Assembly: GCF_004102945.1 (NCBI RefSeq)
Contig: NZ_CP019384.1
Location: forward strand, 150,001-182,000
DNA length: 32,000 nucleotides
Direction: 5' to 3'
Source of the DNA: Candidatus Velamenicoccus archaeovorus
GTDB lineage: Bacteria > Omnitrophota > Gorgyraeia > Velamenicoccales > Velamenicoccaceae
A program made the position numbers and the translations under genes. Shown piece after piece: positions 3,072 through 19,697 of this stretch. The notes below the pieces were generated by a model. That model ran no database searches and had not been told where the DNA came from. It was given only the letters and a program-made list of their open reading frames with translations. Every line of letters begins with the position of its first letter. The first letter of the stretch is position 1.

Positions 3072-3090
3072 TTTTAAAAATGACAGAAAG

Positions 3091-3140
3091 ATAACAGAGA
3101 ACACCTGCCTGCCGGCAGGCAGGGAGTACAGAGAACAGAG
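3091..3140. repeat. CAGAGAAC word repeats flanking a 20-nt perfect GC palindrome
   Basis: ataaCAGAGAACac (3091-3104), the palindrome cctgcctgccggcaggcagg (3104-3123), then ggagtaCAGAGAACAGAG (3123-3140). The reverse-complement words (GTTCTCTG) recur at 3249-3290 inside the next gene. Confidence 0.8.
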
Positions 3141-3151
3141 ATGGAGGAAAG

Positions 3152-4549
3152 ATGATGGAGAGACAAAAAAATCAGAAATGTTCAGGCGTCCATTCTTGGT
3201 TTTCAATGCCCCCTTCTTTTGACTTTTCCGTCCTTCGGTCTTTCGGCCTCTCTGTTTTTCTGTTTTCCGTTCTCTGTTTTTTGTTCTCTGGACTAAGCGG
3301 CTGCGGCACCCAGGGCGCCCAGACGCCCCAGGCCGCCGGCAAAAAGATCGTCGTCTGGCACTGGATGACGGACCGCGAAGAGGCCTTCCAGGAACTGGCC
3401 AAAAGATATGAGGCCAAGACCGGTATCAAGGTCGTCTTCGAGTTGTACGCCCCTTCCGATGCCTATTCGCAGAAGGTCCGGGCCGCCGCGCAGGCGCGCG
3501 CGCTGCCGGACATCTTCGGCCTTCTCGGCGAAAAGCGGGATTTTGCGGCATTCATCAAAGCCGGCCATGTGGCCAACCTGACAGGCGCGATGGACGAGCA
3601 GGGGGGAGCCTGGAAGAACCTCTTGTATGAAAAGGCCCTGGCGGTCAACGAATTCAGGGCGGACAATCCTTATGGCGTCGAGGCGGGCATCTACGGCGTG
3701 CCGATAGACGTCATGGATATTCAGATGGTCTACAATAAAAAGCTTTTCCAGAAGGCGGGACTGGACCCGGCGCGCCCGCCGAAGGATTGGGCGGAATTTG
3801 TCGCCGATTGCCAGAAGCTGAAGGATGCCGGCATCCAGGGGCTTGTCAGCGGCTGGGGCGAGATCTGGATGATCGATTGTCTGGCATCGAACTTTGCTTT
3901 CAATATCATGGGGCCGGACAAGGTTTTTGCCACTATCCGCGGCGAGGTCCCTTACACGGATCCCGACTGGGTCAAGGTGTTCGGTCTTTTTAAGGAAATG
4001 GCCGACCGCGGCATGCTGGCGTCGGGTATCGTGACCATGGTGAACAAGACAGCCGAGCAGAATTTCGCTAATGAGCGTTCGGCATTTGCCTTTAACGGCT
4101 CCTGGTGCGTCAATGTCTATCACGGCATGAATCCGTCTTTGGATTACGGCGTGATGCTTCCGCCGAAGGTCAATCCTAAAAACCCCATGTATATCTGGGG
4201 TGGGGCCGGCTCTTCGCTTCTGGTCAACGACCGCTCGGCGGTGAAGGAGGAGGCCATCGCATTCCTGAAATGGCTGACAGCGACCGAGCAGCAGGCATAT
4301 CTCTCGGAGACGACCCGCAACCTGCCTTCCAACAGGAAGGTGTCCGGGTCGATCTCGGAGATCCTGGCGGACTTTTCCAAAGGGATGGATAATGTGACGC
4401 ACCCGAACATCTGGCCGGTGAACGAGCTTCCCAAGGTCATCGAGCGTTTCGACAAGGGCATCCAGTCGATCATCATCGGGGAGAAGACGCCGGAAGGCCT
4501 GGCCGAGGAACTGGCCAAGCTCAAGGCCGAAGAAATGGCGAAACAGTAA
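3152..4549 (+). CDS. ABC transporter sugar-binding lipoprotein (family 1 extracellular solute-binding protein)
   Basis: SD GGAGGA at 3143-3148. Signal peptide ending in the lipobox L-S-G-C (..FLFSGLSGCGTQ). The mature part (KIVVWHWMTDREEAFQELAKRYEAKTGIKVVFE.., PDIFGLLG, GVPIDVMDIQMVYNKKLF, WGGAGSSLLV) is typical of CUT1 sugar SBPs. An alternative start at 3206 is possible. Confidence 0.85.
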   Translation: MMERQKNQKCSGVHSWFSMPPSFDFSVLRSFGLSVFLFSVLCFLFSGLSGCGTQGAQTPQAAGKKIVVWHWMTDREEAFQELAKRYEAKTGIKVVFELYAPSDAYSQKVRAAAQARALPDIFGLLGEKRDFAAFIKAGHVANLTGAMDEQGGAWKNLLYEKALAVNEFRADNPYGVEAGIYGVPIDVMDIQMVYNKKLFQKAGLDPARPPKDWAEFVADCQKLKDAGIQGLVSGWGEIWMIDCLASNFAFNIMGPDKVFATIRGEVPYTDPDWVKVFGLFKEMADRGMLASGIVTMVNKTAEQNFANERSAFAFNGSWCVNVYHGMNPSLDYGVMLPPKVNPKNPMYIWGGAGSSLLVNDRSAVKEEAIAFLKWLTATEQQAYLSETTRNLPSNRKVSGSISEILADFSKGMDNVTHPNIWPVNELPKVIERFDKGIQSIIIGEKTPEGLAEELAKLKAEEMAKQ

Positions 4550-4707: not shown

Positions 4708-5772
4708 ATGATTGCTGACAAGATCAAACAATTCTACAACCTGTTGCACAATGCGACGCCTAAGCAGAAGGTGATCGGCACCGTCTTGCTTCTGGCGGCC
4801 CTGGAAACGTTCTTTTTGCTTTTTCACGATTCTGCCGTCTTCTGGGTCCTGGCTTACGGTTCTGTAACGCTGGCCCTTCTTTTCCTGGTCCTGGCCAATC
4901 TTATCAAGAAGAGCCTGTCGGCGTTCTTCTTCGTCGTGCCGGCCCTGTTGATCTTCTCGATCTTTTATATCTATCCTTTTTTCAAAGTCCTTCAGCTGTC
5001 GCATCACGCATGGGACGGTATCTCGCCCAAGATGACCTTTGTGGGTTTGTCCAATTTCTTCGAGATCATGAAGGACAGGATCTGGTGGGTATCCATGGGC
5101 AATGCCGGCTACATCACGCTGATCGCCCTCACGTTCCAGAATGCGCTGGCCCTGGCCTTGGCGTTGGCTTGTGACCGTCAGATCAGGGCAAAGAATTTCT
5201 ATCGCGTGATCTTTTTCATCCCGCCGGTCCTCTCTGAGGTCGTTGTAGGTCTCATCTGGCGCTGGATCTACGACGGCGATTACGGTTTCCTGAACTATAC
5301 GCTTGGCCTTTTGGGGCTGCAACATCTGGCGCATAACTGGTTGTCAGATCCTAACACGGCCCTGACGTGCGTCGCCATCATCCACAGCTGGAAGGGTTTC
5401 GGCTGGGGGTTCATGATCCTTTTGGCCGGCCTGCAGACGATCCCGAAGGAATTGTACGAGGCGGCCAGGGTTGACGGCGCCAATGTCTGGCAAAGCTTTA
5501 AGAATGTGACGATCCCGCTCATGATCCCCGTCTTCGTCCTGGTCATGATCCTGACCATCCTGGGGTCCATGCAGGCCTTTGTCTTGATCTTGTCGATGAC
5601 CGGCGGAGGTCCCGGTTATCATACGGAAGTGCCGGTGACGAGGATCCTGGCGTCCATGCAGGGGTCTTCGATGTTCGGCTACGCCTGCGCCCAAGGGCTG
5701 ACGTTCGGCGTGATCCTGATGATGGTTTCTTTCGCGCAGATGGGGATATCGCGGAAATTGAAACAGGCATAG
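4708..5772 (+). CDS. ABC sugar permease (MalF/UgpA-like, CUT1)
   Basis: Polytopic membrane protein with the EAA loop EAARVDGANVWQSFKNVTIPLMIP and the typical IFFIPPVLSEVVVGLIWRWIY. It has an N-terminal extension of about 60 aa with extra hydrophobic segments. No clear SD, so the start is uncertain. Confidence 0.85.
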   Translation: MIADKIKQFYNLLHNATPKQKVIGTVLLLAALETFFLLFHDSAVFWVLAYGSVTLALLFLVLANLIKKSLSAFFFVVPALLIFSIFYIYPFFKVLQLSHHAWDGISPKMTFVGLSNFFEIMKDRIWWVSMGNAGYITLIALTFQNALALALALACDRQIRAKNFYRVIFFIPPVLSEVVVGLIWRWIYDGDYGFLNYTLGLLGLQHLAHNWLSDPNTALTCVAIIHSWKGFGWGFMILLAGLQTIPKELYEAARVDGANVWQSFKNVTIPLMIPVFVLVMILTILGSMQAFVLILSMTGGGPGYHTEVPVTRILASMQGSSMFGYACAQGLTFGVILMMVSFAQMGISRKLKQA

Positions 5773-5775
5773 GCA

Positions 5776-6110
5776 TAAATAACCAAACACCAAGATACAA
5801 TGACCAAATAATTATCAATAAATCAATAACCAAACAAAAAATCACGATTGAATAACGATGAACGGGGAATTTGATTTTTAGAGAGGCGAACAACAGATTT
5901 TGCCAAAACGGTCATAAGAATATACAGAGATTTGTCGAGAGGTCCAATCAACGATAGGATCGCAGGACAACAACTGTTTAAAGAAGCAGGAGAATTAAAA
6001 AGTATTTTATCGGCCGTTATTTCTAGGTCTGAGTAACGCTTGATGATTGGTTATTGAATATTGGAATTTGTTTGGTGCTTGTTTCTTGGTCATTGGTGAT
6101 TTTTTCATAC
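5776..6110. repeat. AT-rich spacer bounded by imperfect ~70-nt inverted repeats
   Basis: The left arm 5776-5845 has the words ataaccaaaca, caatgaccaa, tcaataacca, aaaaaatcac. The right arm 6040-6106 has their reverse complements (tggttattga, ttggtcattg, gtgatttttt). No ORF of meaningful length lies inside. The spacer is markedly more AT-rich than the flanking coding DNA. Confidence 0.55.
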
Positions 6111-6120
6111 GGGGTTTGGC

Positions 6121-7062
6121 ATGAGACTTAACAAATACACGGCTGCGCAGCACGCATCGGGGTTCTTCATTAATATTTTCCTCATTATCGTCTCCGTGAC
6201 ATGCGTATTCCCGCTTTTGTGGATGTTCGGTTCTTCTCTCAAGACCCAGAGCACGATCTTTTCCGATATGAGCGTCATTCCGGCCTCCATGCATTGGGAG
6301 AATTTTTACCTGGCCTGGACCAAGGGCGGCTTCGGCGTTTATTTCCTGAACAGCCTTTTTTATACCACCATCGTTGTTTTCGGTATCGTCATGGTCTCGT
6401 CCCTGGCGGCCTACGCGTTCTCGCGCATGAACTTCCCCGGCAAGAACCTTTTGTTCTTCATGTTCCTGGCGGCCATGATGATCCCCTTGCCCGGCAGTTT
6501 CGTCCCGCTCTATGTCCTGGTCAACAATGTCCGCAATGTCCTTTTGAACGCGATGGCCGCCTCGACACCGTTTTTGCTCAAGGTCTTTCCGCAGAGCGTG
6601 GTGATCGGGCTCACTTCTTTTATCGAGGACCAGTTTTATCCGCGCACGGCCTACATCCTCTGCATGATCAACGTAGGGCTTTCTTTCAGCATCTACATGC
6701 TCAAGACGTTTTTCGACAGGATGCCCAAGGAATTGGAGGACGCCGCGCGCATCGACGGATGCTCGCGCCTCGGGATATGGCGCCATGTGGCCCTGCCTTT
6801 GGCCAAACCCGCCATCGCTGTCATCATCATTTATAACGCCCTCAACGTCTGGAACGAATACATTCTGGCGAACCTGATTTTGTCGTCGAAGAACCTGATG
6901 CCCCTGCAGAGGGGTCTCATGGTCTTCCAAGGCGAGCACATCACGCAATACCCGTTGCTCATGGCCGGCATGACCATCACCGTTGTGCCCATCCTTATCA
7001 TTTATCTGGTCATGCAGCGGTTCATCATCAAAGGGATCACGGCCGGCGCGGTGGTCGGTTAA
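6121..7062 (+). CDS. ABC sugar permease (MalG/UgpE-like, CUT1)
   Basis: Polytopic membrane protein with the EAA loop EDAARIDGCSRLGIWRHVALPLAKPA and the N-terminal pattern FPLLWMFGSSLK typical of MalG-type permeases. Confidence 0.85.
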   Translation: MRLNKYTAAQHASGFFINIFLIIVSVTCVFPLLWMFGSSLKTQSTIFSDMSVIPASMHWENFYLAWTKGGFGVYFLNSLFYTTIVVFGIVMVSSLAAYAFSRMNFPGKNLLFFMFLAAMMIPLPGSFVPLYVLVNNVRNVLLNAMAASTPFLLKVFPQSVVIGLTSFIEDQFYPRTAYILCMINVGLSFSIYMLKTFFDRMPKELEDAARIDGCSRLGIWRHVALPLAKPAIAVIIIYNALNVWNEYILANLILSSKNLMPLQRGLMVFQGEHITQYPLLMAGMTITVVPILIIYLVMQRFIIKGITAGAVVG

Positions 7063-7100: not shown

Positions 7101-9599
7101 ATGGATAAAACAACTCGAAAAGCTATGGGTGGATATGCGGGGTTTCCTATGAGCGTAACGCGTCGTTTTTTTAGCCTCCAGTTTTTAAGCTCTTTTATTT
7201 TTCTGTTTTCTGTTCTCTGTTTTCTGACTTCCGGTGTTTCCTGCGCCCAGGATGAGCCCGTTCAAAACCAGGAGACTGTGGCAGAGGCTCCGGTGGCAAC
7301 TAATATGATTCAAGAGGAGACAGGAGCTCCGGTTGCTGCAGCCGTTGCCGAACCGGGTCAAAAGGCGTCTGAGACGGCCCCGGCGGAAGTCTCATTGGAA
7401 GAGATGGTGACCGTGGCCAGAAAGGCCAAGGATGAGGGCGATTTCGCGAAGGTCTATGCGACGGTGGACGAAGTGATGCGGCGTTTCGGTCGCGAGGCGG
7501 CCAAGGAGCAGGCGTCGTTGAAAGATTTTCCTCCTACCGAGCAAATCAACAGCTATGCGGTCCTGAATAACGTCGCACAGGCCCAGTTCATCAAAGGCGA
7601 GGCCCTGAAAAAAGAGGGCAAGAAAGACGAGGCGATCGCCGCTTTCGGCGTGATCGTCAGCGATTACGGCTATGCCCAGGCCTGGGACCCTCGGGGATGG
7701 TTTTATAAGACAGCCGAGGTCGCCAAGGAGGCCATCGATCGCCTTCAGGGCAAAGACCCGAACGCCGAAAGGTGCGGGGCGATTCCGGCGACGAAGATCG
7801 AGCTGTCCGATCCCGGCAAGGAAGAGATCGTGGATTACGAAAAGTACGGGGAGTTCGTCGATCCCGGCACAAAAGATTATAAGTATGTCGTCAAGTCCCA
7901 AGACGGGCTTTCCGAGGCCGTCGGCGAAGGGATCTATCCCAACACAACGAGCGTGCGCTGGGATCCGGCATTCCAGGAGGTCAAGAAAGAGAAGCGTCTG
8001 GAAGGCAGCCATTGGGATTTTGTCCGTTCCCCCGACCTGGAGGCCGCTTTCATCAAGTGGGCCATGGCGCCCGAGCCGCCGGGTATCCGGCAGTATTACA
8101 CGGCCATGATCCTTGAAAAATCTGGCCTGATCAAGCACGCGATCAAGGCGTATTATGCCGTTGTCGTTCATTTTCCTCAGACGGTGGGCTGGACGTATTG
8201 GCATACGCCGTGGTACGTCGGGCCGGCGTCCATCGCGCGCATCAAATATCTCTGCAAAAAATATCCGCAGGTGAACATGAAACTCGTGGGCGCCTCCATC
8301 AGGGTCGACAACGGTTTCGACAACGATATCCGCAACGACGTCTTCATCGTGAACCCCGGCCGTATCGTGAAAAACCACATCCCGGAGACGATCTCGGACA
8401 AGGTCAGGAAATACGTCGACATGAAGATCATGCAGCGCCGGATCAAGCGCCGCCTGGGCAACGGACAGGTGCGCCTGGTGCAGTATGAGAACGGCGATTG
8501 GCAGATGCTCGTCGACAGTAAGCCCTACGTCATCAAGGGCATCACCTATCAGCCCGTGAAGGTCGGCCAGAGCCCGGACGACGGCTCGCTGGTGAGCTGG
8601 ATGGAATATGATTACAACCATAACGGCAAGTGCGACGGTCCTTACGATGCGTTTGTGGACGCCAACTGGAACAACGTGCAGGATCCCGGCGAGAAGGCCG
8701 TCGGTGATTTTGAGCTGATGAAACGCATGGGGATCAATACCCTGCGCATGTATCATCAGCCGACGCCTTTGAAAAAGGAGATTTTCAGGGATGCATTCAA
8801 AAGATACGGCATCCGCGTCGTCATCGGCGATTACCTGGGTAAATATGCGCTGGGTTCCGGCGCCAGCTGGCACGAAGGCACGGATTACGATAATCCCGAG
8901 CATCAGAAGAACATGTTGGAATCCGTCCGCAAGATGGTCATGGAATACAAGGATGAACCGTTCGTGCTCATGTGGCTCCTGGGCAATGAAAATGTCTACG
9001 GCGTTGCCTGTAACGCCGACAAAAAACCGGACAGTTTCTTTAAATTTGCCAATGAAGCGGCCAAGCTCATCAAGTCTCTCGATCCCAATCATCCTGTCGC
9101 GATCGCCAGCGGCGACGTGCTGTACCTGGACCGTTATGCCGCCAACGCGCCGGATATCGATGTGTTTGGCGCCAATGCATACCGGGGCGATCAGGGGTTT
9201 GGTTCTTTCTGGTCGGACGTCAAGCGGTTGACGGACAGGCCGGCGATCATCACGGAATACGGTTGCGGCGCCTATGCGTACTGTTATACGCGCGAGCAGG
9301 CCGAGGAAGCGCAGATGGAATATCTGACGGGCTCCTGGGGCGATATCGCGGATAATGAAGCCTTCGGCGACGGGGCAGGCAATGCCATCGGCGGTTTTCT
9401 TTTTGAATATTTAGATGAGTGGTGGAAAGGCTATGAACCGGCCATTCACGATACAAAGGGTTTGTGGATAGGGCCTTTCCCCGACGGCTTCATGCATGAA
9501 GAATGGCTGGGTGTCGCCGGCCAGGGGGACGGGAAATTGAGTCCGTTCTTGCGTCAGCTGCGCAAGAGCTATTATGCGTTCGAGAAGCTGTGGAAATAG
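7101..9599 (+). CDS. secreted fusion protein: N-terminal helical/TPR-like region + C-terminal clan GH-A (beta/alpha)8 glycosidase-like domain
   Basis: Signal peptide ..FLSSFIFLFSVLCFLTSGVSCA/QDE. The C-terminal ~360 aa (from ~nt 8480) carry KPYVIKGITYQP, GINTLRMYHQP, LLGNENVYG (putative acid/base Glu), IDVFGANAYRGD, AIITEYGCGAYA (putative nucleophile Glu), GGFLFEYLDEWWKG and EEWLGV. This domain is paralogous to the 10977-12323 product. The start could instead be 7125 or 7149. Confidence 0.65.
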   Translation: MDKTTRKAMGGYAGFPMSVTRRFFSLQFLSSFIFLFSVLCFLTSGVSCAQDEPVQNQETVAEAPVATNMIQEETGAPVAAAVAEPGQKASETAPAEVSLEEMVTVARKAKDEGDFAKVYATVDEVMRRFGREAAKEQASLKDFPPTEQINSYAVLNNVAQAQFIKGEALKKEGKKDEAIAAFGVIVSDYGYAQAWDPRGWFYKTAEVAKEAIDRLQGKDPNAERCGAIPATKIELSDPGKEEIVDYEKYGEFVDPGTKDYKYVVKSQDGLSEAVGEGIYPNTTSVRWDPAFQEVKKEKRLEGSHWDFVRSPDLEAAFIKWAMAPEPPGIRQYYTAMILEKSGLIKHAIKAYYAVVVHFPQTVGWTYWHTPWYVGPASIARIKYLCKKYPQVNMKLVGASIRVDNGFDNDIRNDVFIVNPGRIVKNHIPETISDKVRKYVDMKIMQRRIKRRLGNGQVRLVQYENGDWQMLVDSKPYVIKGITYQPVKVGQSPDDGSLVSWMEYDYNHNGKCDGPYDAFVDANWNNVQDPGEKAVGDFELMKRMGINTLRMYHQPTPLKKEIFRDAFKRYGIRVVIGDYLGKYALGSGASWHEGTDYDNPEHQKNMLESVRKMVMEYKDEPFVLMWLLGNENVYGVACNADKKPDSFFKFANEAAKLIKSLDPNHPVAIASGDVLYLDRYAANAPDIDVFGANAYRGDQGFGSFWSDVKRLTDRPAIITEYGCGAYAYCYTREQAEEAQMEYLTGSWGDIADNEAFGDGAGNAIGGFLFEYLDEWWKGYEPAIHDTKGLWIGPFPDGFMHEEWLGVAGQGDGKLSPFLRQLRKSYYAFEKLWK

Positions 9600-9611
9600 A
9601 TGGAACAAGGG

Positions 9612-9817
9612 TTGCTCCTTGCTTATGCGCTTGTAAATTTTTTTCCAGGGTAGGCCGTCGGCCTGGCGCAGCCGGCCAGGACGGCCATCCGGAAAAAATT
9701 TCCTGCGCAGGTTGCCGCAGAGAGCGGCACACTGGCTTTTCCAATTAAGCCAGGTGCGCGGAGTTGGTTTTGGAAGGAAAAGTTGCCTGGTTAAGGGCAA
9801 AACCAAGGAGGTGCGGT
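9612..9817 (+). promoter_or_regulatory. conserved 5' leader, type-2, copy A
   Basis: It shares with 21798-22035: TTGCTCCTyGCTTA..CTTGnAAATTT..CCAGG at the 5' end; twin hairpins GCCGC-AGArA-GCGGC plus CTGGCTy-(nTCCAATn)-rAGCCAG (9714-9755); and a hairpin abutting the SD (9764-9772/9798-9806) whose sequence differs but whose pairing is kept. SD AAGGAGG at 9805-9811. Confidence 0.55.
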
Positions 9818-10984
9818 ATGAGGAAGTGGATCGTTGGTTTGGCGGTTCTTCTGGCTGTGGGCTGGAACGTATGCGCCGCAGAAGAGAAGGCCGCAGAAGA
9901 AAAGGCGACGGGTGAGGTCAAGAGTTTTCCTGTCTATACGGATGCGAAATCGCCGGATAATCATTACATTCCCTCGGGATGGATGGGGGATTTCGGAGAT
10001 CTTTCCATGGACGATAAGTATATGGGAGATCCGCATTCGGGTTCGACCTCGATCAAGTTTGTTTACACGGCCAAAAAGACGCAGAACCAGGGATGGGCAG
10101 GTGTGTATTGGCAGAACCCGGCGAACAACTGGGGTTCCAAAAAGGGCGGTTTTGATCTGACGGGGCTGAATAAGCTGACCCTGTGGATGCGCGGCGATAA
10201 AGGCGGAGAAGTCATCGATAAGATCGCTGTCGGCGGCATCAAGGGGACGTATCCGGACACGACGGAAGTCTCTGTCGGGCCGATCGAGTTGACGACGACA
10301 TGGACGCCGTACACGGTCAACCTGGCGGGCAAAGACCTGTCTTATATCAACGGGGCTTTGTGCTGGGTCGCCAACGCGGATTCCAATCCCAATGGCGCGA
10401 CGTTCTATATCGACGATATCAAGTTCGAATATGACCCGGCGCTCAAACCGGCCGGCAAGAAGACGCAGGAAATGCCCTTCTACATTTATGCGGATAAGGG
10501 CTCGATCCAGAACCATTTTATTCCCTCGGGATGGATGGGGGATTACAGCGATCTGAAGATCGATGTGGGTTCGACGGACAATCCATATTTCGGCAAGACC
10601 TGCATCAAGATCACCTACGACAACAAGGCCACCAACGGCGCGCGCTGGGCAGGGATGTACTGGCAGTATCCGGCGAACAACTGGGGTGGTGTCGACGGAG
10701 GATTCGATCTTTCCCGCGCCAAAAAACTGACCTTTTGGGCCAGGGGCGAGAAGGGCGGCGAGAGGATCGAGGAGTTCAAAGTCGGCGGGATCATGGGAGA
10801 ATATTCCGATTCCGATACGGCCGGTATCGGTCCGGTTGTCCTGGATAAGGAATGGAAGCAATACACCATCGATCTGACAGGCAAGGACCTTTCCTATATT
10901 ATCGGAGGGTTTGCCTGGGCGACGAACCTGGATGTCAATCCGGACGGCGCCGTGTTCTACCTTGATGAAATAAAGTATGAGTAA
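9818..10984 (+). CDS. secreted protein with two tandem ~170-aa beta-sandwich (carbohydrate-binding-module-like) repeats
   Basis: Start moved to ATG 9818 (SD AAGGAGG 6 nt upstream; the ORF-track start 9764 lies inside the leader). Signal peptide MRKWIVGLAVLLAVGWNVCAAEE. Repeat 1 has ..HYIPSGWMGDFGDL..GWAGVYWQNPANNWG..GGFDLTG..LTLWMRGDKGGE..FYIDDIKFEY. Repeat 2 has ..HFIPSGWMGDYSDL..RWAGMYWQYPANNWG..GGFDLSR..LTFWARGEKGGE..FYLDEIKYE. The sugar-binding function is inferred only from aromatic-rich motifs and context. Confidence 0.6.
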   Translation: MRKWIVGLAVLLAVGWNVCAAEEKAAEEKATGEVKSFPVYTDAKSPDNHYIPSGWMGDFGDLSMDDKYMGDPHSGSTSIKFVYTAKKTQNQGWAGVYWQNPANNWGSKKGGFDLTGLNKLTLWMRGDKGGEVIDKIAVGGIKGTYPDTTEVSVGPIELTTTWTPYTVNLAGKDLSYINGALCWVANADSNPNGATFYIDDIKFEYDPALKPAGKKTQEMPFYIYADKGSIQNHFIPSGWMGDYSDLKIDVGSTDNPYFGKTCIKITYDNKATNGARWAGMYWQYPANNWGGVDGGFDLSRAKKLTFWARGEKGGERIEEFKVGGIMGEYSDSDTAGIGPVVLDKEWKQYTIDLTGKDLSYIIGGFAWATNLDVNPDGAVFYLDEIKYE

Positions 10985-12323
10985 TACAGAGCACAGAGAA
11001 CAGAGTGCGGAGTACAGAAAACGGGGCGGAAGAAACAGGCTTTTCCCTGTTCTCTGTACTCTGTTATCTGTTCTCTGTCTTTGCGGCATGGCCCCTGCGG
11101 CCAGGAAGAAGGCCTACGTCAAGACCCTGAAGGACGGCCAGTATCAGCTCATGGTGGCCGGCAGGCCTTTTATCGTCAAAGGCGTCTGCTACAACCCGAT
11201 TCCCGTCGGGGAATCGCACGACTACGATTTCTGGAATGACCCGGCCCAGCCGTGGCTCGTGGACGGCCAGCTCATGAAGAAGATGGGCATCAACACGGTG
11301 AGGTTCTATCAGCCGGGAGAAGATATGGCGGCCGTCCGCCGGGTGGTCTCCGACCTTTACAAAAAATTCGGCATCCGCACGATGATGGGGCATTGGCTGG
11401 GATTCTGGAATTATCCGGCCCCTTTTTATGACGATGAAGATTTCCGGAAAAAAGTCAAAGCCGATGTCCTGGCGATGGTCGAAGCCCTGAAAGACGAAGA
11501 GGGGATCCTTTTCTGGGTCCTGGGCAACGAAAACAATTATTCTTTCAGCGGCAAGATCAATTCATGGTCGAGCGAACGCATCGACAAGATACAGGACCCG
11601 CGCCAGTGCCTTTTGGCCAGGGCCGAGACGTATTACACGCTGGTCAATGAGATCGCGCAGGAGATCCACAAGATCGATCCTGCTCACCCCGTGGTCATGG
11701 GCAACGGCGAGCTCATCTGTCTCGATGTGGCCAGCACATTCGCCAAGGACGTGGATATCGTCGGATGTATCATTTATCGCGGCAAGACATTTGGGAATAT
11801 TTTCAAGACCCTGAAGAATACCTTTGACAAACCGCTCTTGTTCGTCGAATTCGGCGCCGACGCCTACAACGCCTACGAAAAGAAGGAAGACGAGGACATG
11901 CAGGCGTATTTCCTGGAGTACCAGTGGGCGGAGATTTATCGTAATCTCGGCGGAACCGCAGCCGCGGGCGACGGCGTCGGCAATTGCATCGGCGGTGTCA
12001 TGTTCGAGTGGACGGACGAATGGTGGAAACACGACGAATGGGATGCGAATGGTTTGTCCGTCCATGATACGGAATCCAACTGGTCGAACGGCGCCTATTA
12101 TTTCGATATCAAGGCCGATCGCAACATGAACATGAACGAAGAGTGGTTCGGTCTCGTGAAGCTCCTGCCTGAAGAGGAGAAAACATCTTCCGGACAGGTT
12201 TTGAACAAGCGCGTGCCGCGCAAGGCTTACTATGCCATACGCGAATTCTGGAGACATCCTTCTAAGTCATCTTCGATCAAGAGCCCGGAGCGTCCTGCGG
12301 CCGCCGGAAAAAACAAACGTTAA
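10977..12323 (+). CDS. secreted clan GH-A (beta/alpha)8 glycosidase-like protein, paralog of the 7101-9599 C-terminal domain
   Basis: Motifs collinear with gene 7101: RPFIVKGVCYNP, GINTVRFYQPG, VLGNENNYS, VDIVGCIIYRGK, PLLFVEFGADAYN, IGGVMFEWTDEWWKH, NEEWFGLV. The putative signal peptide ..LFPVLCTLLSVLCLCGMAPA/A is encoded by the repeat at 11046-11079. There is an 8-nt overlap with the upstream gene. An alternative start at 11088 would remove the signal peptide. Confidence 0.65.
   Translation: MSNTEHREQSAEYRKRGGRNRLFPVLCTLLSVLCLCGMAPAARKKAYVKTLKDGQYQLMVAGRPFIVKGVCYNPIPVGESHDYDFWNDPAQPWLVDGQLMKKMGINTVRFYQPGEDMAAVRRVVSDLYKKFGIRTMMGHWLGFWNYPAPFYDDEDFRKKVKADVLAMVEALKDEEGILFWVLGNENNYSFSGKINSWSSERIDKIQDPRQCLLARAETYYTLVNEIAQEIHKIDPAHPVVMGNGELICLDVASTFAKDVDIVGCIIYRGKTFGNIFKTLKNTFDKPLLFVEFGADAYNAYEKKEDEDMQAYFLEYQWAEIYRNLGGTAAAGDGVGNCIGGVMFEWTDEWWKHDEWDANGLSVHDTESNWSNGAYYFDIKADRNMNMNEEWFGLVKLLPEEEKTSSGQVLNKRVPRKAYYAIREFWRHPSKSSSIKSPERPAAAGKNKR
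10985..11079. repeat. long imperfect inverted repeat of CAGAGAAC-family words
   Basis: The left arm 10985-11021 (acagagcacagagaacagagtgcggagtacagaaaac) is largely complementary to the right arm 11046-11079 (cctgttctctgtactctgttatctgttctctgtc). Both arms lie inside the annotated 5' end of the 10977 CDS. Confidence 0.8.
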
Positions 12324-12373
12324 TCCCTCGGCAGAATTCTCCGGGCCCGGCCCTTTGTCTCGGAACCGGGGGA

Positions 12374-12415
12374 TCGGAGGGATGTTGCTAAGAAGAAAAA
12401 AGGAGTCTCGGACTT
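12374..12415 (+). repeat. conserved ~40-nt motif (copy 1) just upstream of the 12435 gene
   Basis: TCGGAGggaTGTTgCtAAGAagAAAAAAGGAGTCTCGgACTT matches 17814-17852 (TCGGAGaatTGTTcCaAAGAAAAAAGGAGTCTCGaACTT). GTCTCGGAACCGGGGGATC at 12357-12375 also resembles GTCTCGAACTTAAAGTCCGGGGGGATTC at 17842-17869. Confidence 0.6.
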
Positions 12416-12434
12416 TGTTCCAGGAGGTTCGTCC

Positions 12435-14099
12435 ATGACTTTCAGGTGTCCCGTGTCCCAGCGTATCATTTTTTTGACGGTTTGCGGATGGCTATGCTTT
12501 TGGACCTTCGCCCCTGTCTTGGAGGCGTCAGAAACGGGGGTGTCGGCGGCCGCCCCTTCGGTCGAAGCGCTCAAAACTGCTGTTACTCCCGATGACCCTC
12601 AGGGCTTGGTAAACCTCAGGTCCATCGTCGCCTGGTATGTGGGGGACGGAAAATTTGACGAGCTGATCGCCTACCTGGATTCTCTCTTGAAAAAAGGGTT
12701 TGAGCGGCTGCCTGACGTCTATTTTTACCGCGCTTATGCGCGCCAGGCACAGCTGGATTCTTGGAAAAAGACCAAGAATTGGGAAGGGGTCTATGACCAG
12801 GGGCCGCAGCTTGAAGCAGCCATGGAAAAAGACCTGGCGAAGGCCGAGAAGTTCGTTTCGAACCGGCAGGACATGGCGCTGCGTATCGCTTATTTAAGGT
12901 GGCTCATCGCCTCGCAAGACGATCCTGAGGCAGCCGTCGGACTGTTCAACGATGTGGTCAACAAGGCGCAGGGCGCTCTTGCGCAGCCGGAGACGATGAC
13001 CCTCGTCAAGGAGATGGCCGATTCCCTGGCTTCTTATGAAGACAAGAATCTTTCCCGCAGGCTTTATGAGGTATACGCCGCAGCGCTCAAGGCGTCTCAT
13101 CCGGAGCCCGAAGAACTAAGGAAAGCAGGCCTGGCTTTTGTTGAACAAAAGAATATTTATCTGGCGAAAACACTTCTTGAAGGATATCTTGAGCAATTCG
13201 CCGGTAATCCCGAAGTTTTGGCCAAAGAGACCGTCCTTATCGCCGACAAATTCGCTGCTCACGGCTATGAAGAAGCCCTTGATCCTGTTTATGCCGAAGA
13301 TCTTTACAAAAAGGCGTTTGGTCTTGCCGGTCAGAAGGCCTTTGCGGCGCCATCGCAATATACCAGGGCATTCAACCTTGAGCGCATAAAAGATTTCGAG
13401 GGGGCGCTCAGGGAATACGGCAAGGTCCTTTCGGAATATCCGGATTTTCCCGATCGGGCCGGCGTCGAGTTCCGCATAGGAGTGTTGAGCGCTTATGCCG
13501 CCAAAGACATTAAAGGGGCGATGGCGTCTTTTGAGCATATCAAGACCGCTTATCCCGGCGATCGTCTGGTTCTTTCCGCGCTTTACCAGTCGGGGTTGTT
13601 GAGCCAGTGGGGAGATCAGCTTGATGCGGCAAAGGCTTATTATGGAGAGCTGATCACGGCCGCGACGTCCCAGGGGGCCGATATAGAAAAGGATGAGCTT
13701 GTGCTTTTGTGCCGCGAGCGCCTCCAGGAGATCGAAGAGAAGAAACCCATGAAGTATGCCCTGCGGTTGTTTTTTGAAGGGATCTTCGGCCGGTCCGCCG
13801 ATGGTAAAACGCAGGATATGTCTTTGAATGTGGATCTGACGGGCCGGCCGGCCAAGGCGTCGGCGAACGACGACATTGTTTTTACCGTCACGACATCCAA
13901 TCCCGTAACAGGCTGCATGATGCCTGTTTATGCCTATGAATGGTCCGGCGAAACAGGCGCCGTCGCCAATATCCCCAACAGCGCCACCTTGACGACGTCA
14001 TACGGGATGCAAGGCATCAAAGTGACGCACGTGGCTGTGGTGGGGAATAACGGCCTGGAAGGCGTCGGCTTTGAGATGGTGCAAGTTCAGAATGAGTAA
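12435..14099 (+). CDS. secreted TPR-repeat protein with C-terminal Ig/PKD-like domain
   Basis: SD AGGAGG at 12422-12427. Signal peptide ..CGWLCFWTFAPVLEA/SE. Helical repeats of YbgF/TPR style (ALREYGKVLSEYPDFPDRAGVEFRIGVLSAYAAKDIKGAMASFEHIKTAYPGD.., AAKAYYGELI). The last ~100 aa are beta-rich (IVFTVTTSNPVTGC..YEWSGETG..GIKVTHVAVVGNNGLEG). Domain calls come from pattern only. Confidence 0.55.
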   Translation: MTFRCPVSQRIIFLTVCGWLCFWTFAPVLEASETGVSAAAPSVEALKTAVTPDDPQGLVNLRSIVAWYVGDGKFDELIAYLDSLLKKGFERLPDVYFYRAYARQAQLDSWKKTKNWEGVYDQGPQLEAAMEKDLAKAEKFVSNRQDMALRIAYLRWLIASQDDPEAAVGLFNDVVNKAQGALAQPETMTLVKEMADSLASYEDKNLSRRLYEVYAAALKASHPEPEELRKAGLAFVEQKNIYLAKTLLEGYLEQFAGNPEVLAKETVLIADKFAAHGYEEALDPVYAEDLYKKAFGLAGQKAFAAPSQYTRAFNLERIKDFEGALREYGKVLSEYPDFPDRAGVEFRIGVLSAYAAKDIKGAMASFEHIKTAYPGDRLVLSALYQSGLLSQWGDQLDAAKAYYGELITAATSQGADIEKDELVLLCRERLQEIEEKKPMKYALRLFFEGIFGRSADGKTQDMSLNVDLTGRPAKASANDDIVFTVTTSNPVTGCMMPVYAYEWSGETGAVANIPNSATLTTSYGMQGIKVTHVAVVGNNGLEGVGFEMVQVQNE

Positions 14100-14100
14100 A

Positions 14101-14166
14101 GATAACAGTTAACAGAGGACAGAACGATTTTTTCTGTTATCTGTACTCCGTTCTCTGTTTTTTCTG
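14101..14166. repeat. CAGAGAAC-family inverted repeat in the spacer before the GH116 gene
   Basis: gataacagttaacagaggacagaac (14101-14125) faces ttctgttatctgtactccgttctctg (14132-14157), followed by a T-run at 14158-14163. Pairing is imperfect: ACAGAA/TTCTGT plus ACAGA/TCTGT. Confidence 0.65.
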
Positions 14167-14176
14167 TGGAGCAGAC

Positions 14177-16381
14177 ATGCCCATATACACATCCGACCAA
14201 AACGTAAAATCAGGGGTTCCGCTGGGAGGTCTCGGCGCCGGCAAGATGGAGATTTTGCCTCACGGCGGCTTGGATCATTTCACGTTTCTCAACAGCCTCC
14301 ACAGGCCTGTTTGTTCTTCTGATCTATCGGGACGAAAAGGCATCCTTGGTTTTCACTTCGGTATTTTTGCGGCCACCAAGAAGAAAAGAGTTGCCAAGCT
14401 TCTTGAGACCAATGTCCCTGTCGGCTGCAGCGGCATTTCGTCGATCGTCTTTGACGGCAAATATCCTTTTGCCCATCTGGACTACAAAGATGATGAGCTT
14501 CCTGTCCGGTGCGAGTTGGAGGCATTTTCCCCATTAATTCCTCAGGACGAAAAAAGATCAGGCACGCCGGCCGCCATTTTTCGTTTCAAGATTACGAATC
14601 CTACCTCTCAGACGGCGGCTGTTTCGCTTTTGGCCTGCGGTCGCAACATCATCGGGGATTGGATGGTGGGTCGGTTTAACCAGGTGCACGAAACGCCGGA
14701 ATGCCTTTGCGTGAATTTCTTCAATAAGAAAACGCAGGGCGCCGCAGATCCTTTGTCCGGAGAGATGGCGTTGGGAGTGGTCAAAGACAAAAAACTCGTT
14801 TGCACGTATCTGGGTGAGTGGAACATGCAGTCGCGGCCCTTTGTTTTCGACAGGAACGGTTTTTCGCTCCAGGAGGCGTGGACCGCCTTCAGCCGCGACG
14901 GGATGCTGCCTAATACGAATACCGAGCGTGTCGTGGCGTCCGAAAGCGTGCAGTTGGGCGGGGCGCTGGCAGCCCAGACCGTGCTTAAGCCAAAAACGTC
15001 GGTCACGATCACTTTTTTCTGGACATGGTTTTTCCCGGCATATGCCGAAGGCAAGATGTATGAGAATTGGTTCCGCGGCGTCCACGACTTGAGCTTGTAC
15101 ATTTCAAAAAACGCCGCCGGCCTTTATGCCGCCACGCGGGGATGGGTGAAAGATCTCCTGGGCCTTAAAATGGACGCGTGGATCAAGGACGCCCTGTTGA
15201 ACAATCTTTATCCTTTTTCTTCGGGCAGCCACTGGACCAAGAGGGAGCGTTTCGGGTTTTTTGAGGCGCCGGAGATATGCCCTCTTTTGGGGACCCTCGA
15301 TGTCAGGTTTTTTGCGTCCGTCGCCCTTGCTATGTTTTTTACGCAGCTCGACCTCAAGGAGATCACGCAGTTTGCCGAAGCCCAGAGGCCCCAGGGGTAT
15401 GTCCCGCACGACTTGGGTAACAAGCGCAGCGACTTGCCGTCTAACAGCACCAACGGCCTGCTCTGGAAAGACCTGAACGCCAAGTTTATCCTTTTGGTCT
15501 GGCGAGGGTATCTTTTGACAGGCGATGAGGCGTTTTTAAAACGAATGTATCCTTTTGTCAAGAAAGCCTTTTACTGGCTTGCGGCCACGGACAAAAACAA
15601 GGATTTTCTGCCTGACAGCGAGGGGGCGGATACGACTTTCGACCTTTGGCAGCTTTACGGCGTGACGGCATATACGGGTGGCGTGTTCTTGGCGGCCCTC
15701 CTGGCCTTGGAAAAGATGGGTATGCACCTGCAGGACGAAGAGTTTGTGCGCGAGGTCAAAAACTGGCTCAAGAACGGCCGTGCCCAGTTCGAAAAAAAAT
15801 TGTGGCACAAGGGTTATTTTATAGCTTATAATGATAGTAAGAAGGATTTGTCAGAACAGCAACTCTCCCATCAACTTCGCTTTCAGAAAGTCAACATTTC
15901 TTGTACGGCATCTCAGCTGGTGGGGCAGTGGATCGCGCATCTCTTGGGGCTGGGGTATATTGTTTCCCCTGAAAAAGTCAAAAAGGCGCTTGCGACTATT
16001 TTCGAACTTAATGGTTCGGCCTCTAGATACGGGGTGGTGAACGCTGTCTTGCCCTCAGGCGAAAAAGACAAGTCAAACGGACACGCGGAGAACGTCTGGA
16101 TCAGCATGACCTATATCCTGGCGGCCTTGGCCATCTATGAAGGGATGGAGAAGGAAGGGTGCGCCCTCGCCAGGAAGGCCTGGGACAACGTTTCGATGAA
16201 TGCCCTGAATGCCTGGAACCAGCCGGACATGGTGTCGTCGGTCGACGGCAGTTTTATGTTCGGCGACCATTATATGCGCAACATGAGTTTCTGGGCGTTT
16301 GCGATCGCCTACGCGCACAAACGTAAAGATGTTTCTGCATTTTTAAAACGGATCAGAAATGATGAAAGAATCTTATTTTAA
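14177..16381 (+). CDS. GH116-family beta-glucosidase / glucosylceramidase-like enzyme (cytoplasmic)
   Basis: N-terminal GVPLGGLGAGKMEILPHGGLDHFTF.. is typical of the GH116 N-domain. The large C-terminal (alpha/alpha)6-like region has ..PHDLG.., WKDLNAKFILLVWRGYLLTGDEAFLKRMYP, TFDLWQLYGVTAYTGGVFLAAL. The size (734 aa) fits. No signal peptide. Confidence 0.8.
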   Translation: MPIYTSDQNVKSGVPLGGLGAGKMEILPHGGLDHFTFLNSLHRPVCSSDLSGRKGILGFHFGIFAATKKKRVAKLLETNVPVGCSGISSIVFDGKYPFAHLDYKDDELPVRCELEAFSPLIPQDEKRSGTPAAIFRFKITNPTSQTAAVSLLACGRNIIGDWMVGRFNQVHETPECLCVNFFNKKTQGAADPLSGEMALGVVKDKKLVCTYLGEWNMQSRPFVFDRNGFSLQEAWTAFSRDGMLPNTNTERVVASESVQLGGALAAQTVLKPKTSVTITFFWTWFFPAYAEGKMYENWFRGVHDLSLYISKNAAGLYAATRGWVKDLLGLKMDAWIKDALLNNLYPFSSGSHWTKRERFGFFEAPEICPLLGTLDVRFFASVALAMFFTQLDLKEITQFAEAQRPQGYVPHDLGNKRSDLPSNSTNGLLWKDLNAKFILLVWRGYLLTGDEAFLKRMYPFVKKAFYWLAATDKNKDFLPDSEGADTTFDLWQLYGVTAYTGGVFLAALLALEKMGMHLQDEEFVREVKNWLKNGRAQFEKKLWHKGYFIAYNDSKKDLSEQQLSHQLRFQKVNISCTASQLVGQWIAHLLGLGYIVSPEKVKKALATIFELNGSASRYGVVNAVLPSGEKDKSNGHAENVWISMTYILAALAIYEGMEKEGCALARKAWDNVSMNALNAWNQPDMVSSVDGSFMFGDHYMRNMSFWAFAIAYAHKRKDVSAFLKRIRNDERILF

Positions 16382-17573
16382 AGGGGAGAATCTTTCGGAA
16401 AGGTCCAGGAAAAATCTCTTCATCCTGGACGCTATCCGCCGCCGCGGGCCCATCAGCAAGACGGACATTTCCAGCCTGATCGGTCTCAACGTCGTCACCG
16501 TCTCCAACTATGTCGACGAATTCCTGCGGCAGAAGATCGTTTTCGAAAAGGAATTTGACGTTTCCAAGGGCGGTCGCCGGCCGTTGCTTCTGGATTTGAA
16601 TACATCCGCCGGCTATGCGGTGGGTGTCGGGGCCAACCTCTTGGGGACGATCGGTGTCGTGACGGACCTGAGCGGCAAGATCCTGCATAAGGTCAAGAAT
16701 GGAAAGTCCGGATCCGGTTGCCGCGAGGTCGTGGATTCTCTTTTGACGACGACAGCGGAGCTGCTGGACGAGGTGAAAGGCTGCAGGCAGCGGATCAAGG
16801 GTATCGGTATCGGTATCGGCGGCATCGTTGACGCGGCCAAAGAAAAAGTGCGCTGGCCGGAAAAGATAGAGAACGGCTATCATTATCTGGACGTTACTGT
16901 TCCCTTGAAAGATATTCTGGAAAGGGAGTTCCGGCTTCCCGTCGTCATTGAAAATGACGCGACGCTTGCCTGCTTCGGCGAGCAATGGCTGGCGCTGGAT
17001 TCGGACATCAGGAATCTCTTGTACATGTTCTCCGGCGTGGGCTGTGGCCTGATGATTAATAGCGAGATTTACCGCGGCACAAGCGGTTGCGCCGGCGAAG
17101 TGGCCGTCCATAGCGACAGGAAAGAGGCGCCGTATTTCTTGGAAAGATGGGAGGCGGACTTAGGGATAGGCGCGGAATACGTCAAACGTCTCCAATGGAA
17201 GAAAGGCCACGGCTCCGGCGGGAGCAGAGCGTCGAAGGAAGCCGTTGATACGAGCCTGGGCGGGATCTTCGAGGCGTGCCGCAGAGGAGAGGCCCCGGCT
17301 GTGGACGTCGTGCGCGAAGCCGGACGGCGCCTGGGGCTGCGTGTCGCCTATCTGGTTAATCTTCTGAATCCGGAAATGGTCGTGATCGGCGGCGGCATCG
17401 AAGAGGCCGGTATTGTTTTGATCGAAGAGGTCAAGAGCGCTGTGAGCGAATGGTGTTTTGAGGAATCCGCCGGGGCCGTCAAGATCGTTCCGACCCGCTT
17501 GGGCGAAAACGGCGTGGCCCTTGGCGCTGCGAGCCTTGTCACGCGTCAGCTTTTCGCCGCCCTTAACGACTGA
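16359..17573 (+). CDS. ROK-family transcriptional regulator (NagC/XylR-like)
   Basis: N-terminal winged-helix (NLFILDAIRRRGPISKTDISSLIGLNVVTVSNYVDEFLRQKIV) plus a ROK sugar-kinase fold (GVGANLLGTIGVVTDLSGKIL, IGIGIGGIVD, VVIENDATLACFGEQW, GVGCGLMINSEIYRGTSGCAGEVA, VVIGGGI). It overlaps the GH116 gene by 23 nt. Confidence 0.85.
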   Translation: MMKESYFKGENLSERSRKNLFILDAIRRRGPISKTDISSLIGLNVVTVSNYVDEFLRQKIVFEKEFDVSKGGRRPLLLDLNTSAGYAVGVGANLLGTIGVVTDLSGKILHKVKNGKSGSGCREVVDSLLTTTAELLDEVKGCRQRIKGIGIGIGGIVDAAKEKVRWPEKIENGYHYLDVTVPLKDILEREFRLPVVIENDATLACFGEQWLALDSDIRNLLYMFSGVGCGLMINSEIYRGTSGCAGEVAVHSDRKEAPYFLERWEADLGIGAEYVKRLQWKKGHGSGGSRASKEAVDTSLGGIFEACRRGEAPAVDVVREAGRRLGLRVAYLVNLLNPEMVVIGGGIEEAGIVLIEEVKSAVSEWCFEESAGAVKIVPTRLGENGVALGAASLVTRQLFAALND

Positions 17574-17813
17574 TTTTTTTCTTCTTAACTCCCTGAAAAA
17601 AAAGAAGTAATATGATCCGTGGATGAAAAAATCCAGCCTTCGCGGGCTGCGCCCGCAGGACAGACAGGATTCTCCGTTCAGGATTCCGCCCCCCAGAAAA
17701 GAAACCTCGCCTTTTATTTTTCTTTTATCAACCCCATCTTTTTTAATCCCACGGCCGTGAATGGCGGTTGCCTTTGGGAGGAAACCCCCTCAGAGGATAG
17801 CCGATAGGATTAT

Positions 17814-17852
17814 TCGGAGAATTGTTCCAAAGAAAAAAGGAGTCTCGAACTT
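17814..17852 (+). repeat. conserved ~40-nt motif (copy 2) in a gene-free region
   Basis: See 12374-12415. Here no convincing CDS follows it. Confidence 0.6.
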
Positions 17853-17986
17853 AAAGTCCGGGGGGATTCCACAGAGTTTCGAGGTTTGGCTGTCTTTCCG
17901 TCGACAAAAGGCCATTTCATTTCTCTCTCGGCGTCGTAACTCCTGTACTTTCTCCCGCTTAGGTCATGCGATCGTTTAAATTTTTC

Positions 17987-18015
17987 TTGCACATGCGTCT
18001 TTATTATGATATATC
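17987..18015 (+). promoter_or_regulatory. candidate sigma70-type promoter upstream of type-1 leader copy B
   Basis: TTGCAC (17987-17992), 17 nt, TATATC (18010-18015), with TG at 18007-18008. The block tttcTTGcA..TTATGATA is shared with 184-211. A second candidate is TTGGCC (18080-18085), 16 nt, TATATG (18102-18107). Confidence 0.4.
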
Positions 18016-18134
18016 TAAGTTCAAATGAGAGCATCATCCGGCAAAAACACTTAACTTGTGGGCTGGGTTGATGTTCGGATTGGCCCTCTTTTATTTTTTT
18101 ATATATGGGCCGGTCCCCTCGATGTGACGGCGGG

Positions 18135-18291
18135 GTCAAATGAAGGCATAACTTAGCGAGTGCCAACGAGCTAAGTTATATGCCTGAATTTGACTCAGCA
18201 CGAATTTTAGATAAAATTTGTGCTGGGTTGAATTCGCGCATACAACTTATGTTCATAGCGTTCCATAAGTTGTGCGCTCATTCAAGGAGGT
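18135..18291 (+). promoter_or_regulatory. structured 5' leader RNA, type-1, copy B (upstream of coiled-coil gene)
   Basis: P1 18135-18141/18188-18194. Loop GAA (18142-18144)/UGA (18185-18187). P1b 18145-18157/18170-18184 with a 2-nt bulge (18180-18181). P2 18196-18208/18213-18225. GGGUUGAAUUC 18225-18235. P3 18236-18251/18264-18277. CUCAUU 18277-18282. SD AAGGAGG 18284-18290. Confidence 0.55.
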
Positions 18292-18294
18292 GTG

Positions 18295-19650: not shown

Positions 19651-19697
19651 CGATGAAACAGATCCCAAAAAGATGATGCAGGTCATTGAAGGTGGTT

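Follow-up and report, generated by a model that had tools for sequence, protein, structure and literature searches.

Four co-conserved exported proteins as the putative front end of an ABC-type glycan utilisation locus in Omnitrophota

The question raised by the locus

In the genome of Candidatus Velamenicoccus archaeovorus (Omnitrophota), four adjacent genes for exported proteins, here referred to as O1 to O4, are placed between the genes of an ATP-binding cassette (ABC) sugar importer and those of cytoplasmic sugar-processing proteins. What do these four proteins do, do they act together, and on which polymer? We examined a stretch of 32,000 nucleotides (nt) from contig NZ_CP019384.1 (positions 150,001 to 182,000), referred to as the window, across which one gene array runs entirely on the + strand. 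The locus is noted in the literature as 'carbohydrate import and glycosyl hydrolases' or 'GH2', and its four genes were not dissected there. It is an ABC-type glycan utilisation locus with unusual traits, namely two barrels resembling glycoside hydrolase (GH) family 158 without its immunoglobulin (Ig)-like domain, a free tandem protein resembling carbohydrate-binding modules (CBMs), an adaptor with tetratricopeptide repeats (TPR) and an Ig-like end, fixation across the sampled phylum and adjacency to giant genes, which in this phylum are of record size. We propose, with a probability of roughly 0.55, that O1 to O4 are the extracytoplasmic front end of a glycan-harvesting system in all Omnitrophota loci sampled, and that its substrate is most likely a beta-1,3-glucan or a mixed-linkage beta-1,3/1,4-glucan.

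The four open reading frames (ORFs) were confirmed exactly where the original prediction, made from the sequence alone, had placed four consecutive signal-peptide genes, and their signal sequences are kept in orthologs.

7101-9599, + strand: O1 (832 amino acids, aa), signal peptide, low-complexity linker, TPR-motif N-domain (about residues 100-470) and clan GH-A barrel (about 470-832); QAT16270 by gene order; alternative start at 7146
9818-10984, + strand: O2 (388 aa), signal peptide and two CBM-like beta-jelly-rolls (about residues 33-205 and 218-388); QAT16271 = BU251_00210; the mechanical ORF opens at a TTG at 9764
10977-12323, + strand: O3 (448 aa), exported clan GH-A barrel, probably membrane-anchored or a lipoprotein; QAT16272 by gene order
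12435-14099, + strand: O4 (554 aa), signal peptide, TPR superhelix (43-451) and C-terminal Ig/PKD-like beta-sandwich (465-552); QAT16273 = BU251_00220

The O2 sequence matches that of BU251_00210 from Candidatus Velamenicoccus archaeovorus LiM at 100% identity.

Conservation of the four-gene module

The original prediction had treated the four genes as a unit, a view to be given up if the proteins hit well-characterised families of independent function and their adjacency was lost in other genomes. We searched 85 fetched related loci with the window proteins by tblastn, counting for each gene the loci with enough flank, and found O1-O2-O3-O4 in this order in 59 of 60. The substrate-binding protein (SBP) and both permeases of the importer lie upstream in 48/51 loci, while a ROK-family protein (46/50), a coiled-coil protein (46/50) and a LacI-family regulator (45/50) lie downstream; these genes and the four between them make up the constant frame. 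A GH94 phosphorylase gene was present in 14 of 51 loci and a GH116 gene in 13 of 50, and the description of the locus as a 'beta-glucoside import/phosphorolysis operon' thus holds in this lineage but not for the majority of the loci. Those bearing GH94 or GH116 are mostly the closest to Velamenicoccus by O2 identity, and elsewhere the ROK gene mostly follows O4 directly.

Median identity to the window was 71.5% for O2, the best-conserved protein of the locus, 60% for O3, 58% for O1 and 28% for O4. More than 1000 homologs of O1 were recovered; the best 120 are full length, 58-97% identical and from Omnitrophota wherever named. For O2, more than 4000 matches were obtained, 65-85% identical across the phylum, and at least 563 stretches of a collection with one genome per species encode an O2 relative. 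Several public metagenome-assembled genomes with the locus (L007, L011, L012, L015, L020-L022, L026 and L074) are labelled Planctomycetia/Planctomycetales, Deltaproteobacteria or Margulisiibacteriota, and one O1 homolog is labelled as a Thermoproteota archaeon, although the locus was otherwise met only in Omnitrophota; such labels are probably taxonomy or binning errors.

PilZ genes were found upstream in 37 of 41 related loci; in 22 of 41, an ORF with a length of 2 kb or more extends beyond the 5′ end. Where it was called, the upstream giant gene has 15,000-29,000 codons. The position of the locus downstream of the giant and PilZ genes was reported for many Omnitrophota (bioRxiv 10.1101/2023.11.21.568195).

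The O1 and O3 barrels

The barrels of O1 and O3 are paralogous (30% identity, E = 1e-58), as had been predicted, and both match the GH2 TIM-barrel model PF02836 (7.6e-15 and 55.3 bits for O1, 2.2e-5 and 24.2 bits for O3, with a cut-off of 21), although only partially, at profile positions ~38-235 of 302. When 38 O1/O3 barrels from 19 genomes were aligned, the glutamates of the acid/base (NEN) and the nucleophile (TE[YF]G), the active-site pair of a clan GH-A enzyme, were invariant, and two further invariant motifs, FEWxDEWWK and EEWxG, were found to be the barrels' own. In O1 the acid/base is Glu630 within GNEN (nt 8982-8993) and the nucleophile Glu719 within TEYG (nt 9252-9263); in O3, which beyond its signal sequence consists of the barrel only, GNEN lies at nt 11523-11534 and the nucleophile in VEFG at nt 11844-11855.

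We searched the solved structures with single barrel sequences and with a profile of the 38 barrels. The best solved relatives of both barrels are GH158 beta-1,3-glucanases (9oro, 5.9e-15 and 6pal, 6.8e-14 with the profile), with whose catalytic glutamates both of theirs align, while GH2 enzymes rank after them at 1e-9 and weaker. The third-best relative is PDB 9fz9. The 'GH2' label in databases, which a 2026 preprint likewise uses (bioRxiv 10.64898/2026.06.07.730766), is explained by the partial PF02836 match, as the N-terminal jelly-roll and Ig-like domains of GH2 gave no Pfam match in O1 or O3. A secondary Pfam match of O1, to the GH72 model PF03198, stayed at 20.4 bits, below the cut-off of 25.9, with 28.6 and 23.6 bits in two O1 orthologs.

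GH158 enzymes are retaining beta-1,3-glucanases with a strict requirement for beta-1,3 linkage at subsites -2/-1; mixed-linkage glucan is cut as well. They combine the barrel with an eight-stranded Ig-like domain, and a loop of this domain can turn the active site into a tunnel (PMC13195107). Like BuGH158 (PDB 6PAL) and GH158(Pro) (PDB 9ORO/9P25), O1 and O3 show a retaining clan GH-A (alpha/beta)8 barrel with aligned glutamates. In contrast, they have no Ig-like domain, which in GH158(Pro) forms the tunnel, and O1 carries an N-terminal extension of ~420 residues. Since only the central barrel aligns and the Ig-like domain is absent, we regard both barrels, judging by sequence, as GH158-like and not as members, and they would constitute a glycoside hydrolase group at or beyond the edge of that family.

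The O2 binder

O2 is internally duplicated, with halves that are 52% identical (E = 2e-65), and its AlphaFold2 model, with a predicted local distance difference test (pLDDT) score of 78, shows two beta-jelly-rolls. Duplication and fold are as the original prediction had them; the 'aromatic-rich' character is modest, since W+Y+F make up 13.4% of the protein, near the value of its neighbours, with 16 Trp. Foldseek placed the single domains near 2c24 and 1wmx (CBM30), 7t7y (CBM8), 6r31 (CBM11) and 1k42 (CBM4), at target-normalised TM scores of 0.55-0.68, with CBM16 also among the neighbours; the best match of the whole chain was the Bacteroides surface glycan-binding protein SGBP-B (1.5e-7). By sequence, O2 matched nothing in Pfam, CBM models included, and nothing useful among solved structures, and in NCBIfam it matched a choice-of-anchor J surface-protein domain (9.5e-9).

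A profile search of 1.84 billion representative proteins (50% clustering) detected O2-type domains in 2960 proteins. Of 20 multidomain relatives scanned, seven (P0331, P0335, P0345, P0348, P0349, P0353 and P0364) have two or three O2-type domains placed after a catalytic domain of GH17 type, a family of beta-1,3-glucanases and transglycosylases, and in four the O2-type domains reach Pfam CBM30 (PF21582) at 26-38 bits. From these fusions and matches, the O2 domain would therefore behave as a CBM associated with beta-glucan enzymes, and it probably represents an undescribed CBM family. With the type-B families CBM30, CBM11, CBM4 and CBM8 it has in common the beta-jelly-roll fold, and related domains that weakly reach CBM30 and are appended to glycoside hydrolases. 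It differs from them in its identity of only ~15%, the lack of a Pfam CBM match, its free-standing tandem arrangement and its kinship to choice-of-anchor J. We also considered the GH17-type domains of these fusions as relatives of the O1/O3 barrels and rejected them, as the two are not related.

With barrels distantly akin to GH158 and with O2-type domains appended to GH17-type enzymes, the earlier statement that the extracellular part matches no characterised depolymerase set does not hold.

The helical parts of O1 and O4

Two TPR-like scaffolds had been predicted. For O4, a full superhelix was obtained: the AlphaFold2 model (pLDDT 87.6) shows TPR repeats at 43-451 followed by the beta-sandwich of ~90 residues, its Foldseek matches are TPR superhelices, and the sequence contains Pfam TPR_6 and TPR_14, a YbgF-like match (1.9e-7) and BamD-like motifs, while searches with the sequence against solved structures gave nothing useful. 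In O1 there are TPR motifs too, but only one or two hairpins are detectable. The conserved region of ~370 residues after the linker contains TPR_6 in 18 of 21 orthologs, with only weak matches in the window copy. Residues 235-470 of O1 are very strongly conserved and match nothing recognisable, and a profile of the whole N-domain found no relative among solved structures. A common origin of the two helical scaffolds was dropped, as BLASTP and hhalign recovered one TPR-like hairpin only, at 44% probability.

O4 evolves fast, and its best-conserved part is the C-terminal sandwich, which contains a YEWSGExG motif. The name 'PKD-like' suits this end in fold and motif, but no Pfam PKD model matches, and the last 119 residues hit no Pfam family at E up to 1. 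Periplasmic TPR scaffolds such as YbgF/CpoB, BamD, NlpI and PelB/AlgK/BcsC are similar to O4 in being exported TPR superhelices with YbgF- or BamD-like motifs. Unlike them, O4 has no porin or lipid anchor, ends in a conserved Ig-like domain and belongs to a catabolic locus instead of a biosynthetic or envelope-maintenance one.

Export signals

The signals of O1, O2 and O4 are of the signal-peptidase-I type, both in the window and in orthologs. In O3, a hydrophobic anchor comes after a long polar n-region, and some lineages also show a lipobox. The SBP carries the lipobox LSGC in the window, and most orthologs have one as well. As part of the O3 signal is encoded within an RNA hairpin (see below), it could have been an artefact of the hairpin or of T-rich sequence; this was ruled out, because in 73 of 77 orthologs the O3 frame remains open over 35 or more codons ahead of the mature motif, versus 14 and 22 in the other two frames.

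Importer, cytoplasmic enzymes and regulators

The genes and structured regions around the module are as follows.

2-58, + strand: 3′ end of the second PilZ gene, upstream of the locus (tblastn, 19/19 residues identical to the PilZ C-terminus on the near-identical contig L005)
636-3071, + strand: GH94 phosphorylase, cytoplasmic, lineage-specific accessory (PF17167 2e-106, PF06165 1e-66; QAT16267)
3075-3300, + strand: structured 5′ region enclosing the ribosome-binding site and start codon of the SBP gene (heptamer repeats; RNA fold -81.8 kcal/mol, z = -4.25)
3152-4549, + strand: lipoprotein SBP of a CUT1-type ABC importer (SBP_bac_1, SBP_bac_8; lipobox LSGC)
4708-5772, + strand: ABC permease 1 (PF00528; position conserved)
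6121-7062, + strand: ABC permease 2 (PF00528; position conserved)
10987-11083, + strand: long RNA hairpin where O2 stops and O3 starts (-59.2 kcal/mol, z = -9.1)
14177-16381, + strand: GH116 beta-glucosidase-type enzyme, cytoplasmic, lineage-specific accessory (PF04685, PF12215)
16359-17573, + strand: ROK-family protein with NagC/Mlc-like N-terminal region (PF00480)
18292-19500, + strand: membrane-anchored coiled-coil protein with a small C-terminal beta domain (in 46/50 loci)
19686-20717, + strand: LacI-family regulator (PF00356, PF13377)

Pfam and solved-structure searches agreed with the earlier description of the importer, GH94, GH116 and ROK genes. A family-1 SBP together with two MalF/MalG-type permeases identifies a CUT1 importer; the SBP hit no NCBIfam equivalog, and no ATPase gene for the importer was found in the window. 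CUT1 loci are commonly without an ATPase gene of their own. Among solved structures, GH94 comes closest to a cellobiose phosphorylase (3qde, 4e-148) and next to a chitobiose phosphorylase (1v7v, 4e-130), and the GH116 protein matches the beta-glucosidase TxGH116 (6e-64). Where these two cytoplasmic enzymes occur, they are of the beta-glucoside type.

The ROK gene (404 aa) belongs to the family that had been named, but a kinase-only architecture does not apply: residues 26-399 align end to end with models of the regulators NagC (1.4e-31) and Mlc. It is more likely that this protein is a regulator than a kinase, and probably a sugar-responsive one. The operon appears to carry two regulators, of ROK and LacI type, and no sugar kinase.

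The small C-terminal beta domain of the coiled-coil protein gave a faint FlgT_C match. There are unusually long non-coding gaps within the operon, of 349 nt between the permease genes (5773-6120; 88 nt in the related locus L003) and of 719 nt between the ROK and coiled-coil genes (17574-18291), and no feature was recognised in either. On the 3′ side of the LacI gene, a 346-aa protein (20749-21789) is encoded, which is found in 13 analysed related loci at 38-99% identity and matched nothing in Pfam or NCBIfam.

Expression and RNA structure

Expression values were taken from the supplement of Lonsing et al. 2025 (PMC12583861), with transcripts and metaproteome of a V. archaeovorus enrichment culture. 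Accessions were mapped by exact sequence, while O1 and O3 were assigned by gene order between mapped neighbours. Protein abundances (relative intensity-based absolute quantification, riBAQ, in parts per million, ppm; all from PMC12583861) are given in the order 10 kS cells / 100 S aggregates / 100 S cells.

GH94: 274 / 75 / 372 ppm
SBP: 816 / 623 / 1337 ppm
Permease 1: 39 / 5 / 26 ppm
Permease 2: not detected
O1: 376 / 43 / 443 ppm
O2: 1106 / 1431 / 4045 ppm
O3: 25 / 81 / 52 ppm
O4: 246 / 56 / 468 ppm
GH116: 77 / 21 / 101 ppm

As O1 to O4 are all present in the metaproteome, they are real, expressed proteins. O2 is the most abundant of the locus and exceeds the O3 protein 14- to 80-fold. The coiled-coil protein would be very abundant too (648-1947 ppm), provided that gene order assigns it correctly to QAT16277.

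Within the window, 15 copies of the heptamer TTCTCTG or its complement CAGAGAA were counted, versus 0.05 expected, all of them at the gene boundaries of this operon (3085-3290, 7199-7227, 10986-11078 and 14100-14158). At the O2/O3 junction, opposite orientations of the heptamer pair into a hairpin of ~97 nt, from the arms of which the O3 signal peptide is encoded: the purine arm gives the polar n-region and the pyrimidine arm the hydrophobic core. A second, long-range structure, with CAGAGAA upstream and TTCTCTG in the signal-peptide codons, encloses the ribosome-binding site of the SBP. Most related loci have a strong hairpin at the O2/O3 junction as well, for example L003, L021, L035, L053, L080 and L085; its sequence is not conserved, and it is often GC-rich with a T-run, similar to an intrinsic terminator. 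A consensus scan for promoters and terminators stayed at chance level, and no known RNA family was found in Rfam. The O2:O3 ratio would be explained if the element after O2 served as a partial terminator or as a 3′ stabiliser, and similar intercistronic hairpins are known from other operons for sugar transport.

How the module may work

The beta-glucan reading draws on two independent hints, the GH158 kinship of the barrels and the GH17/CBM30 association of O2. Depolymerisation is favoured over transglycosylation because of the importer and the sugar-responsive regulators, although transglycosylation by the retaining barrels is possible. We envisage that O2, abundant and free-standing, captures a beta-glucan chain, from the surface of a prey or host cell or from the environment, which O1 and O3, as anciently diverged retaining GH158-related barrels, would cut to short oligosaccharides, O1 as a soluble enzyme and O3 as a membrane- or lipid-anchored one. 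O4 might act as an adaptor that joins the enzymes, the binder or a partner in the envelope. Carbon would then flow inwards: the lipoprotein SBP and the two permeases would take up the products and, in the Velamenicoccus lineage, GH94 would complete the breakdown by phosphorolysis and GH116 by hydrolysis in the cytoplasm. Perhaps the ROK- and LacI-type regulators control the locus, and the hairpin after O2 keeps this protein in large excess over O3. The TPR content and the co-conservation of the genes suggest that the proteins may be assembled into a complex.

Two kinds of known loci are comparable. The beta-glucan loci of Bacteroidota (GH158/GH16, surface glycan-binding proteins and SusC/D) similarly use exported endo-glucanases and a non-catalytic binder to feed an importer; the Omnitrophota locus differs in having no SusC/SusD, in its uptake by a lipoprotein-SBP ABC importer, in its TPR proteins and in being phylum-wide instead of patchy. 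The ABC-importer/GH94 loci for cellobiose, laminaribiose or sophorose in Firmicutes and Thermotogae have in common with it a CUT1 SBP with two permeases and no ATPase gene, a cytoplasmic GH94 with a beta-glucosidase, and a LacI or ROK regulator. In contrast to these, GH94 and GH116 are optional here (~27% of loci) and the four exported proteins are constant.

Several observations weigh against a beta-1,3- or mixed-linkage glucan as the substrate, or against harvesting as the role. The GH158 match is of ~58 bits and covers profile positions ~85-296 of 371, i.e. strands beta3 to beta7 only, and there is no room for the C-terminal Ig-like domain, as O1 ends with the barrel at 832 and O3, with 448 aa, is too short. 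Given this distance and the missing domain, linkage specificity is not safely transferable from GH158. GH94 matches laminaribiose phosphorylase at 6e-44 only, the SBP finds its nearest solved structure in a chitin-oligosaccharide binder (4e-22, a weak match) and the ROK protein is similar to NagC; these three affinities would equally suit a substrate that is beta-1,4-linked or contains N-acetylglucosamine (GlcNAc). In the majority of loci, the operon lacks a cytoplasmic glycosidase. Identities of 55-72% across the phylum are unusually high for carbohydrate-active enzymes of nutrient acquisition and would fit a housekeeping envelope role too. Finally, the module was strongly expressed in an enrichment culture fed with limonene only, so that the organism itself or other microbes must have supplied any beta-glucan there.

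Alternative explanations

The alternative that survives best, which we nevertheless regard as doubtful, is that the four proteins act independently from a shared operon, with the TPR parts serving folding, envelope tethering or unrelated partners. The abundances of O2 and O3, up to ~80-fold apart, argue against a fixed equimolar complex, and the helical part of O1 shares no homology with that of O4. However, the strict co-conservation of the gene order in 59 of 60 loci speaks against independent action, TPR domains are typically interaction modules and, more speculatively, the conserved Ig-like end of O4 could stand in for the GH158 Ig-like domain that the barrels lack.

Joint action could also reach further than glucan harvesting as proposed above. 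In an unlikely but wider scheme, the module would be the digestive and uptake arm of an Omnitrophota host-attack apparatus, coupled to the giant 'archaeovorin'-type protein, PilZ and a type II secretion-like system. O1/O3 would then represent a new GH family and O2 a new CBM family, and O4 would be a TPR-Ig adaptor giving the GH158-type Ig element in trans, the whole being an assembled machine, extracellular or periplasmic, that strips a specific glycan from host or prey cells.

It is rather improbable that the same architecture acts on a non-glucan polymer of the prey or host surface, such as a GlcNAc-containing glycan, as the digestive part of a predation apparatus with the giant gene and type II secretion-like genes. 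The similarities of the SBP and the ROK protein listed above point this way, as does the almost equal nearness of GH94 to chitobiose and cellobiose phosphorylases, and GH116 includes beta-N-acetylglucosaminidases. The neighbourhood of the giant and PilZ genes is in line with it as well, since a role in breaking down the surface polysaccharides of target cells has been put forward for the giant protein (PMC10066038). Yet the SBP and ROK similarities are weak and generic, and both independent hints from the exported proteins, GH158 and GH17/CBM30, favour beta-glucan.

The least probable view is that the module remodels or recycles a self-made glucan (capsule, attachment matrix or periplasmic glucan), with the barrels mainly as transglycosylases, the TPR proteins as scaffolds and the importer salvaging the trimmings, after the models of GH72/GH17 in fungal walls and of the TPR scaffolds of the Pel, alginate and cellulose systems. 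The high and uniform phylum-wide identity of O2, O3 and O1, the secondary match to GH72 glucanosyltransferases, the YbgF/BamD type of the TPR proteins, which are envelope scaffolds, the upstream PilZ (cyclic di-GMP) genes and the strong expression in a culture without external glucan would all be in its favour. Against it, no glycosyltransferase or synthase gene was found in the window or the related loci inspected, the block has the typical setting of a catabolic locus, with an importer on one side and LacI/ROK sugar regulators on the other, and the GH72 match is under the Pfam cut-off.

Significance for Omnitrophota

Omnitrophota are widespread, uncultured and ultra-small, and their feeding mode (predation, epibiosis or free fermentation) is debated. 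As a locus present in nearly all sampled lineages and highly expressed, the one described here offers a clonable handle on their diet: the barrels, the small binder and the SBP are open to expression and assay with no need for a culture of the organism. A further trait of the locus is an intra-operon hairpin that is written into the coding region of a signal peptide.

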